From Candidatus Entotheonellaceae bacterium (GTDB lineage Bacteria; Tectomicrobia; Entotheonellia; Entotheonellales; Entotheonellaceae): a DNA stretch of 64,000 nucleotides. Shown here one piece after another: positions 59,198-61,012 of the stretch. The position numbers were made by a program, and so were the translations under genes. The DNA is taken from positions 2,464,001 through 2,528,000 of the forward strand of contig OZ250173.1 of NCBI GenBank assembly GCA_965238075.1. Direction: 5' to 3'. Each line of letters begins with the position of its first letter. Position 1 is the stretch's first letter. The notes beneath the pieces are model-generated. The model did not search any database and was not told where the DNA came from. It saw only the letters and a program-made list of their open reading frames with translations.

Positions 59198-61012
59198 ATG
59201 ACCAAGGTTATGATTGTCGAGGCGGACAAGCGGACTGCCGAGGCGTTGGGTGCGATGCTGGCCGGTGAGGTGGACGACACCCGGCACGCCGTCAGTTCCG
59301 CCGAGGCGCGGCAAGCGTTGCGGCAGGGGGCTTGTGACATCCTCATCGTCGCTCTGGGTATGACGCTGGAACGGGTGCAGGAAGGGCTGACGCTGTGTGC
59401 GCAAGTGAAGCAGCGCACGCCCGCTACGGTGGTGATCCTGGTGGCGACCGACCCGGCGGCGGAAGCGGTGCTGCAATCGCTGGGGCGCGGTATCGGCGAT
59501 CACCTTGTCAGCGGCGATTCGGTCACCTCGCAGGTTCGCGCCTTGGTGCGGCGTCTGGTGCGCCGCCAGGCACAGCGGCAAGCGAAGATCGTCTGCACCA
59601 TCGGGCCGGCCAGCGATTCCCAGGACAACTTGTCGCGGCTGATCGACGCCGGCATGGACGTTGCCCGCCTCAACTTCTCGCACGGTGATTGGGACTGGCA
59701 CCGCCTGGTGTGTGAGCGCATTCGCCGCCTCGCCGAACACGTCGCCATCATGGCCGACCTGCAAGGCCCCAAACTGCGCATCGGCCACATGCAGAACGAT
59801 ACCGTCGTGCCCCTTCGGCAGGGCGCGACCTTCACCCTCACGTCACGGCCGGTGGCGGGGTCGGAGAACATCGTGTCGCTCGACTACCCGGACCTGCCGC
59901 GCGACGTTGCTGCCGGCGATACCCTGTACCTCGATGACGGCCTGATCAAACTGCAGGTCGTGGAAGTGCGCGACGACACTGACATCATGTGCCAGGTGCT
60001 GACGGGCGGGCGGCTGAGCAGCCGCAAGGGCATCCACGCACCGCGCGCCATCCTCGGCATGCATGTGCCAACCGCCAAGGACCGGCAGGATATCGTGCTG
60101 GCGGCCGAGCTGGACATGGACTTCCTGGCCGTTTCCTTCGTCGCCGAGGCTGACGATGTGCGCCAGGTGCGCGCCGCCCTGCAGGAGGTCGGCGCGGAAA
60201 TGCCGCTCATCAGCAAGATCGAGCGCGAGATCGCCCTGGAGAATTTCAGCCGTATTCTGGAGGTGTCGGACGGCATCATGGTAGCGCGCGGCGACCTGGC
60301 GGTGAACATTCCCACCGAGGACGTGCCGCGACACCAGAAAGCCATGATTCGTGCCTGCAACCAGCAGGGCAAACCGGTGATCTGTGCCACCCAGATGCTG
60401 GAAAGCATGTGCGCCTATCCGCTGCCGACGCGCGCCGAAGTGAGCGACGTGTTCAACGCCATTCTGGACGGCGCCGACGCCGTCATGCTGTCAGCCGAAA
60501 GCGCCGCCGGCGACTACCCCATCGAGGCCGTCGGCATGATGGCGCGCATCGTCCGTAGCGCCGAACGCACCCTGCCGCAATTCAACCCCGCCGCCGAGAG
60601 CGTGCTGCCGGATCAGACCCCGGCGATCATCAGTCACGGCATCTCGACGATGATCGAGCGCTTCAACCGCCACAGCGGTCACATCACCGCCATCCTGGCC
60701 GTCACCCGCTCCGGCCACACCGCCCGCATGCTGGCCCGCTACCGCCCCGGCGTGCCGATCATCGCTGCCACCAGCTCGCGCCGAGCGTCGCGCCAATTCC
60801 TGCTGTCGCGCGGCATCACGCCGATGCGCCTCGACGACGAACTGCCCGACCCGACCGTCGCCCACGCCGCTATCATCCAGGCCGTGCGGGAGCGCCTGCT
60901 CTCCGAGGACGATACCGTTCTGGCCGTCTCGGGCTCGGGCTGGGCGCCGCAATTCCACACCAACATTCTGGGCTTGTTCGCGGTGCGTGACATCCTTGAC
61001 AGTCATTGCTAA
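59198..61012 (+). CDS. pyk: pyruvate kinase with N-terminal receiver-like domain
   Basis: From about aa 127: KIVCTIGPAS, ARLNFSHG, DLQGPKLR, KIE, MVARGDL, ATQMLESM, PTRAEVSDV. aa 1-125 show a REC pattern. Confidence 0.95.
   Translation: MTKVMIVEADKRTAEALGAMLAGEVDDTRHAVSSAEARQALRQGACDILIVALGMTLERVQEGLTLCAQVKQRTPATVVILVATDPAAEAVLQSLGRGIGDHLVSGDSVTSQVRALVRRLVRRQAQRQAKIVCTIGPASDSQDNLSRLIDAGMDVARLNFSHGDWDWHRLVCERIRRLAEHVAIMADLQGPKLRIGHMQNDTVVPLRQGATFTLTSRPVAGSENIVSLDYPDLPRDVAAGDTLYLDDGLIKLQVVEVRDDTDIMCQVLTGGRLSSRKGIHAPRAILGMHVPTAKDRQDIVLAAELDMDFLAVSFVAEADDVRQVRAALQEVGAEMPLISKIEREIALENFSRILEVSDGIMVARGDLAVNIPTEDVPRHQKAMIRACNQQGKPVICATQMLESMCAYPLPTRAEVSDVFNAILDGADAVMLSAESAAGDYPIEAVGMMARIVRSAERTLPQFNPAAESVLPDQTPAIISHGISTMIERFNRHSGHITAILAVTRSGHTARMLARYRPGVPIIAATSSRRASRQFLLSRGITPMRLDDELPDPTVAHAAIIQAVRERLLSEDDTVLAVSGSGWAPQFHTNILGLFAVRDILDSHC

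Follow-up and report, generated by a model that had tools for sequence, protein, structure and literature searches.

The window analysed here, a 64,000-nucleotide stretch of contig OZ250173.1 from a Candidatus Entotheonellaceae bacterium, contains an open reading frame (ORF) of 604 amino acids (aa) in which a CheY-like domain (residues ~1-125) is followed by a complete pyruvate kinase (PK) of the K+-independent type. This gene, here called REC-PK for its receiver (REC) domain, is the one PK match in the closed 3.35-Mb genome (G000). A preliminary description, made without database searches, had read the gene as a receiver-fold N-terminus fused to a complete PK, and Pfam, NCBIfam, AlphaFold2 and Foldseek bear this out. 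Judged from its sequence, REC-PK genuinely joins a receiver-fold domain, predicted to be unable to take phosphate on the canonical Asp, to a complete K+-independent-type PK. A glycoside hydrolase family 15 (GH15) gene lies next to it in divergent orientation. Coordinates of the features are given in Table 1.

Table 1. Features of the REC-PK locus, in window positions.
Feature	Position	Strand	Details
REC-PK gene	59198..61012	+	604 aa, ATG start; sole pyruvate kinase of the genome (ORF list, Pfam, NCBIfam)
Predicted pseudo-receiver core, β1-β5 (residues 1-110)	59198..59527	+	E8/A9, A52 (codon 59351-59353), A83, H102, S105
REC helix α5 (residues 109-125), Arg-rich	59522..59572	+	Runs almost directly into PK strand β1
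PK barrel and lid (Pfam PK, residues 127-445)	59576..60532	+	E 5.6e-114; catalytic residues conserved
D187-L-Q-G-P-K-L-R-I195	59756..59782	+	L113/Q114/K117/I120 signature of K+-independent PKs (rabbit numbering)
PK C-terminal (effector) domain, residues 495-591	60680..60970	+	Pfam PK_C, E 6.5e-22
GH15/TreH1-like trehalase-type glycoside hydrolase	57275..59089	-	Divergent neighbour of REC-PK
Divergent spacer GH15/REC-PK	59090..59197	.	108 bp; 91% mean column identity over 6 genomes, 133 columns

A receiver fold with a degenerate active site on a complete pyruvate kinase

Pfam Response_reg (PF00072) matches residues 4-103 of the protein with an E-value of 7.1e-7, a borderline result (29.8 bits, cut-off 30.2), and in a six-frame scan of the genome the match in the window reaches 31.3 bits, above the cut-off. 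The first 131 aa match many NCBIfam response-regulator models (best E 5.3e-8) and, in isolation, 16 distinct receiver sequences of the Protein Data Bank (PDB) at E<=0.01, the best being PmrA (1.5e-4). Response_reg matches 16 of the 20 members of the family alignment, and homology of the window domain is secured because orthologues with a canonical receiver (described below) score E-values down to 6.7e-20. AlphaFold2 predicts the β1α1β2α2β3α3β4α4β5α5 order for residues 1-128 (pLDDT 88.5), with strands at residues 3-7, 27-31, 48-53, 78-83 and 102-105 and helices at 11-21, 34-43, 57-73, 86-95 and 109-127. The preliminary description had named a match of aa 1-125 to the REC fold as one test of its reading. 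Foldseek returned at least 417 PDB matches at E<=0.001 for the predicted domain; the top matches listed are nearly all receiver domains (TM 0.63-0.79), the FrzS pseudo-receiver included.

Alignment to PmrA and to the canonical orthologues reproduced every residue assignment made in that description. The acidic pair is E8-A9 (D10 is next), the phospho-acceptor Asp position is A52, the Ser/Thr switch position is A83 with T84 adjoining, and the conserved Lys position is S105. The aromatic switch position, Tyr in the canonical orthologues, is His102. Thus, four of the five residues of the receiver active site (DD, D, T/S, K) are lost (A9, A52, A83 and S105) and E8 is kept, and we predict that the domain is no functional phospho-receiver. 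In the accessible text of PMC12632262, a pseudo-receiver (PsR) is a recognised receiver without at least one of the five residues, and an aspartate-less receiver (ALR) is one without the Asp. By its predicted residues the window domain falls under this definition as a pseudo-receiver and, more narrowly, as an aspartate-less receiver.

The PK part is predicted to be catalytically complete. PF00224 matches with 381 bits over model positions 2-328 of 328 and PF02887 with 78 bits; among NCBIfam models, the pyruvate kinase families TIGR01064 (498 bits, cut-off 306) and NF004491 (511 bits, cut-off 432) were identified. In an alignment of 61 PKs, R157, N159, S161, H162, D187, R194, K340, E342, A363-R-G-D366, T398 and E414 do not vary, and the core aligns end to end with the enzymes of Staphylococcus aureus (3t05) and Geobacillus stearothermophilus (2e28), both with E ~1e-98. 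The motif DLQGPKLRI aligns to DTKGPEIR of S. aureus PK. It carries the residues L113/Q114/K117/(L,I,V)120 (rabbit numbering) that are given as the signature of K+-independent PKs in the accessible text of PMC8835810 and PMC4284704, and the assignment to that type in the preliminary description was correct. The usual effector domain also looks intact, as the loop T503-R-S-G-H-T508 of the C-domain aligns to TESGST of S. aureus PK. The genome encodes in addition a 922-codon frame resembling pyruvate phosphate dikinase (PPDK). Flux between phosphoenolpyruvate (PEP) and pyruvate can therefore run both ways, and needs control.

The two parts are joined with little between them. A basic helix had been described as the joint; the helix is indeed basic (R114, R118, R119, R122 and R123), but it is α5 of the receiver itself and not a separate linker. 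R118 and R122, and also R127 beyond the helix, are invariant in an alignment of eight sequences from the window genus and Entotheonella. In the full-length model (pLDDT 88.6, pTM 0.85), α5 spans residues 109-125 and PK strand β1 residues 130-134. The gap of four residues suggests a short, probably rigid connection rather than a flexible tether.

Relatives of the fusion and descent of the degenerate receiver

A search scored on residues 1-135 gave 35 proteins, nearly all of 604 aa, and PF00072 was found in 31. In these 31, as in the six genomes of the window genus, the N-terminal domain has one and the same length, well beyond what chance would produce. Among close members that cover the phospho-acceptor position, Asp occurs in 0 of 16 (8 Ala, 7 Thr, 1 Pro). 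The fusion is present in 8 of 17 genomes of the phylum: in 6/6 of the window genus (g1) and in 2/3 of a sister genus of the same family (g5), where the orthologue is 606 aa long (the ORFs of loci L008 and L009). PK of any kind was identified in 13 of the 17, and the fusion is the sole PK match in each of its 8 carriers (the window genome and 7 others). Searching the 131-aa domain against the genome contigs gave no relatives, and a whole-genome search was used instead.

Receivers of two kinds are found on this enzyme. The L008/L009 orthologue is canonical (D-E, D, S, Y, K), as are P0036-P0046; P0036 is, by its source name, ETSY1_06655 of Candidatus Entotheonella factor. P0047 keeps all scored residues, with a deletion over the Asp column. 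The complete D-E/D/S/(Y,F)/K set is present in 7 of 17 N-terminally extended proteins of the alignment. Degenerate receivers occur in P0034 and P0050-52, where the Asp is replaced by P, G or A and the Lys by S, R or T. The preliminary description had asked whether homologues keep the Asp: those of the canonical sister subclade do, apart from P0047 and P0048, and those of the window's own degenerate subclade do not.

P0048 (605 aa, from a metagenome) lies inside the canonical subclade and has an E-Q acidic pair and Glu in place of the phospho-Asp, with Ser, Phe and Lys kept. By these residues it is a further aspartate-less form of the fusion that arose independently, and one of 'phosphomimetic' type.

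A maximum-likelihood tree was built from the PK core only (40 rows, quick IQ-TREE search, SH-aLRT supports). REC-PK forms one clade (support 98) with two subclades, one canonical (99) and one degenerate (93), and the degenerate label needs one change on this tree. The degenerate subclade carries A, T, P or G at the Asp position, A or V at Ser, and S, V, R or T at Lys. The tree points to a single loss of the switch residues, along the branch leading to the window's subclade. Regain of all active-site residues of a receiver is implausible; thus, we infer that the ancestor of the fusion carried a true receiver, and that the window domain is a degenerate descendant of a true phospho-receiver-PK fusion that is still present in the sister genus. 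Two receiver-less PKs, P0057 (484 aa) and P0058 (487 aa), branch basally to REC-PK and carry the C-terminus specific to that clade (LFAVRDLL in P0057). They represent either the state before the fusion or a secondary loss of the receiver.

A profile search with the first 185 aa against 1.84 billion representatives gave 2 matches below 1e-30 (a fragment, P0123, and P0052), as the family amounts to about one cluster at 50%; the 150 matches listed are otherwise multi-receiver proteins and PK fragments, and the search is no census of architectures. P0188 (594 aa) was considered as a second fusion lineage and rejected as a singleton, its N-terminus being common to 0 of 39 other matches. It is a long-branch, unrelated PK with a 125-aa N-terminal extension that has a receiver-like hydrophobic pattern and no Pfam match. 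Other odd architectures occur among P0274 (578 aa), P0059 (693 aa), P0125 (815 aa) and P0185 (1280 aa): PK with several 4Fe-4S ferredoxin-type domains, PK with GTP cyclohydrolase I, and tandem PK units.

The degenerate receiver remains under purifying selection. Over 15 pairs from the six genomes of the window genus, the median ω (Nei-Gojobori) is 0.29 for residues 1-110 and 0.09 for PK; one nearly identical pair gives a meaningless ω of 1.14 at a dS of 0.011. Across deeper pairs, REC divergence divided by PK divergence gives 2.69 for degenerate members (22 pairs) and 2.51 for canonical ones (24 pairs). Judged against its own enzyme, the dead receiver is therefore constrained as tightly as the live one. 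The segment of α5 and the junction is at least as conserved in the degenerate as in the canonical clade, and receiver and junction are co-linear across the family, with no indels. Constraint, junction conservation and the absence of indels make both a decaying remnant and an internal start less likely.

An internal start would place the beginning of translation near the PK core and leave the upstream 125 codons outside the protein. ATG 59198 is preceded, 8 nt upstream, by a GGGGG run that makes a weak ribosome-binding site, a GTG codon is present at V121, and the spacer lacks a sigma-70-like site in the promoter scan; these points are what such a start has in its favour. The scan, for sigma-70 promoters and terminators, found none in the spacer and one promoter-like site, at 60987-61015, before the short-chain dehydrogenase/reductase (SDR) gene downstream. 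However, residues 1-110 evolve under the constraint given above without frameshifts or stops in all six genomes of the genus, the Met-1 start is kept family-wide and V121 is not conserved, and AlphaFold2 confidently predicts the region as a receiver fold. We therefore consider an artefact of the start codon extremely unlikely.

Contigs from RNA libraries (four public runs, two studies) also cover the locus. X1 and X3 (9 kb) include the whole 2201-base stretch 58900-61100 with 7 differences, X5 corresponds to 58900-60231 and X7 to 58900-59767. As these contigs cross the divergent spacer, they are not single transcripts and may include DNA; they yield no transcription start and are not counted toward expression or the start codon. 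Some of the assemblies with this near-identical sequence are labelled sponge or coral metagenome, and the organism is thus probably associated with marine invertebrates.

Histidine kinases and gene neighbourhood

The window genome has 13 Response_reg and 7 HisKA matches. Three relatives of the same genus have 5 HisKA matches each (G008, G009, G011), and two Entotheonella genomes have 91 and 67 (G004 and G005). The histidine-kinase repertoire thus differs roughly ten-fold within one family. These four genomes of the window genus are 3.4-4.3 Mb in size, and the two of Entotheonella, about 2.5 times larger, are 7.9-9.7 Mb, fragmented and 8-13% contaminated. The dead receiver belongs to the lineage in which histidine kinases are very few, a correlation that covers only two genera. 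About 420 bp past the window end (G000:C1:2528421-2528750), a 252-codon frame after the gene for an HpaI-like aldolase gives a weak Response_reg match (42 bits).

The divergent GH15 protein matches TreH1/TreH2-like models with 390 bits, under the equivalog cut-off of 820 bits. Its longest ORF starts at GTG 59143, and ATG 59089 has AAGGAG 7 nt upstream. The family models align from ~residue 22-27, and together with the AAGGAG motif this makes 59089 the probable start; the 108-bp spacer given in the preliminary description is correct if the gene starts there. In the window and five relatives (L014-L018) the spacer has long invariant runs, e.g., around GCCCGCAATTATACAG, and synonymous sites of the flanking genes differ by ~0.3. 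Shared regulatory sites may lie in it.

The block rhodanese - Mrp/NUBPL - GH15 <-> REC-PK - SDR - DHA2 transporter of the major facilitator superfamily (MFS) - HpaI-like aldolase is kept in 5/5 other genomes of the genus. Conservation of the block and of the spacer says little, because these genomes are close kin with synteny over the whole block. The Entotheonella orthologue shares none of the window's REC-PK neighbours. In one Entotheonella genome (locus L019, G004:C47, 4241-9880), REC-PK is flanked by an HpcH/CitE-like lyase and a divergent malate synthase, with a ureidoglycolate lyase nearby, a glyoxylate/C2 context; no histidine kinase was found among the eight ORFs scanned near this gene. 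The proposal that REC-PK and GH15 are co-regulated fared poorly, since the pair is conserved only within a genus of close kin and the Entotheonella orthologue has other neighbours. Co-regulation with trehalose use is a weak, genus-level possibility.

Comparison with known systems and possible role of the receiver

The closest comparison is the Entotheonella REC-PK (P0036, with P0037-P0047 from metagenomes). It has nearly the same length (605-607 vs 604 aa), the same junction of α5 to PK and 55-57% identity, belongs to the sister clade and is likewise a sole PK. It differs in its full active site (D-E, D, S, Y/F, K), in the strength of its Response_reg match (E to 6.7e-20), in the 67-91 HisKA matches of its genomes and in its neighbourhood. 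The architecture itself is already in databases, as precomputed Pfam strings. In the ESM Atlas, a 127-member cluster of ~595 aa carries PK, PK_C and Response_reg (89% of members) and is commonest in Thermodesulfobacteriota. By its description, through which alone it was compared, this cluster has the same order Response_reg + PK + PK_C, but it belongs to a different lineage, with 0 members among the close relatives of the window protein. The earlier statement that PK accessory domains are mainly C-terminal PEP-utiliser domains is therefore incomplete, because at least one other lineage also has PK fused to a receiver.

PKs with a PEP-utiliser domain (PF00391; Bacillota and cyanobacteria) resemble REC-PK in having an extra, regulatory-looking domain, but theirs is at the C-terminal end and of a different fold. 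Those seen here were P0278, P0287, P0299, P0303, P0304 and P0307, and PDB entries 3t05 and 2e28. K+-independent PKs of the Lys117 cluster, such as VcIIPK of Vibrio cholerae, share L113/Q114/K117/I120 and the A, B and C domains and differ in having no N-terminal receiver; VcIIPK is described as needing allosteric activation (accessible text of PMC8835810, PMC4284704 and PMC5501398). The pseudo-receivers FrzS and RitR (definitions in PMC12632262 and PMC4395418) have a receiver fold without the catalytic residues, and FrzS is among the top fold matches. The outputs of known pseudo-receivers are DNA-binding, coiled-coil or signalling, whereas the output here is PK.

Receiver domains fused to enzymes are known in general. 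Pseudo-receivers make up ~6-13% of receiver domains, and how bacterial pseudo-receivers are activated or inactivated 'remains a mystery', according to the accessible text of PMC12632262. That text has no occurrence of 'pyruvate', and PMC4395418 mentions pyruvate phosphate dikinase and not PK, with no matches in its 6 supplement files. We found no study of a receiver-pyruvate kinase fusion in full-text literature searches, which did not cover subscription journals. The preliminary description knew of no characterised example, and none turned up in these searches or in the accessible text of these two papers. Receiver-enzyme fusions and pseudo-receivers being already known, what is new is the pairing of orthologous live, Glu-substituted and dead receivers on one enzyme.

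We lean, with modest confidence, towards reading the window domain as a phosphorylation-independent module, rigidly coupled to PK and hard-wired into a structural or allosteric role. A genuine phospho-receiver would have been fused to PK in an ancestor of the Entotheonella-related lineage. In the canonical subclade, a histidine kinase probably tunes PK directly via this receiver: phosphorylation would reposition the α4-β5-α5 face, and because α5 runs straight into the A-domain, such a shift would alter how active PK is or how it assembles. The window's lineage, in which histidine kinases are now very few, would have lost the input, and the switch residues would have been lost once and together. 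The fold, α5 and the short, rigid junction to PK were kept under purifying selection, and the domain, mounted on the A-domain, would lock the enzyme into a single state of regulation or oligomerisation, probably that formerly induced by the phosphorylated receiver. Ordinary effector control through the intact C-domain would continue. Of the phosphorylation-independent sensory or localising module proposed in the preliminary description, the loss of the canonical phosphorylation site stands, and the sensory or localising role is conjectural. A constitutive structural or allosteric role agrees with the descent and the purifying selection no less well than an input from a new ligand or partner would.

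Several points weigh against a hard-wired module. The link between loss of histidine kinases and the dead receiver is drawn from just two genera, and the degeneration predates the window genus because it is common to P0034 and P0050-52. In the shallow clade of the window, the ratio of REC to PK divergence is 4.7-8.5 in 5 of 6 pairs with PK identity >=0.90 (1.8 in the sixth); this higher ratio, and an ω three times that of PK, may also fit partial relaxation of the receiver. That the frozen state is the former phosphorylated state is a guess, for which the existence of P0048, with Glu for Asp, is the sole support.

It is also conceivable, if unlikely, that the pseudo-receiver has been repurposed for a new input, a small ligand or a partner protein, and controls or localises PK without phosphorylation. 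The domain is as constrained relative to PK as canonical receivers are (ω 0.29), known pseudo-receivers such as FrzS are among its structural matches, regions unimportant in ordinary receivers gain importance in pseudo-receivers (accessible text of PMC12632262), and the Arg-rich α5, with R118, R122 and R127 invariant, could contact an anionic ligand. However, outside the genus no partner gene is conserved beside the fusion (in comparison with the Entotheonella neighbourhood), no ligand motif was identified in the domain, and the invariant arginines of α5 are common to the canonical clade and hence no novelty of the dead version. Phosphorylation could instead persist on a non-canonical residue (D10, D47, or a Ser, Thr or His) or from a donor other than a histidine kinase. 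D47 is invariant, D10 adjoins the pocket and the window genome retains 7 HisKA matches, but the metal-binding pair and the Ser/Thr and Lys for phosphotransfer are all missing, and D47, the common structural Asp of strand β3, is also present in the canonical clade. We consider continued phospho-regulation of this kind very improbable.

The domain could, finally, be a passenger that lost its function with the kinase and is kept because α5 and the core pack on the sole PK, so that deletion would be destabilising. Loss of all switch residues, a receiver ω three-fold that of PK, the very small histidine-kinase repertoire, and the receiver-less P0057 and P0058 at the base of the clade, which imply that the PK core can exist without the domain, would all agree with this. 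Yet the domain is at full length without indels although receiver identity falls to ~30-40% across the degenerate clade, its rate relative to PK is no higher than in working receivers (2.69 vs 2.51), and the α5/junction segment is conserved in that clade equally well or even better. On balance, a functionless passenger seems to us improbable.

Returning to the hard-wired module, a wider possibility, which we hold tentatively and regard as rather doubtful, is that one device is seen in two states, canonical and Asp-less. In Entotheonella-like bacteria, a histidine kinase would switch the sole PK directly through the fused receiver; in the window's reduced-genome lineage, the device would be hard-wired in an 'on'-like form (or governed by a metabolite or nucleotide ligand on the Arg-rich α5 face). 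If so, the former would amount to two-component control exerted on central carbon flux through the protein itself, and the dead receiver would be a built-in activator or tetramer clamp for a type of PK that in other organisms relies on allosteric activation. The receiver's output here is an enzyme of central metabolism whose activity is simple to assay quantitatively, and matched live, Glu and dead orthologues of it exist. Comparing them could reveal what function of a receiver remains after phosphorylation is lost, and could show whether two-component signalling acts on glycolytic flux without transcription. The domain would also be a clean example of a signalling component that stays behind when histidine kinases become few, here in a small-genome bacterium related to a lineage with large genomes.

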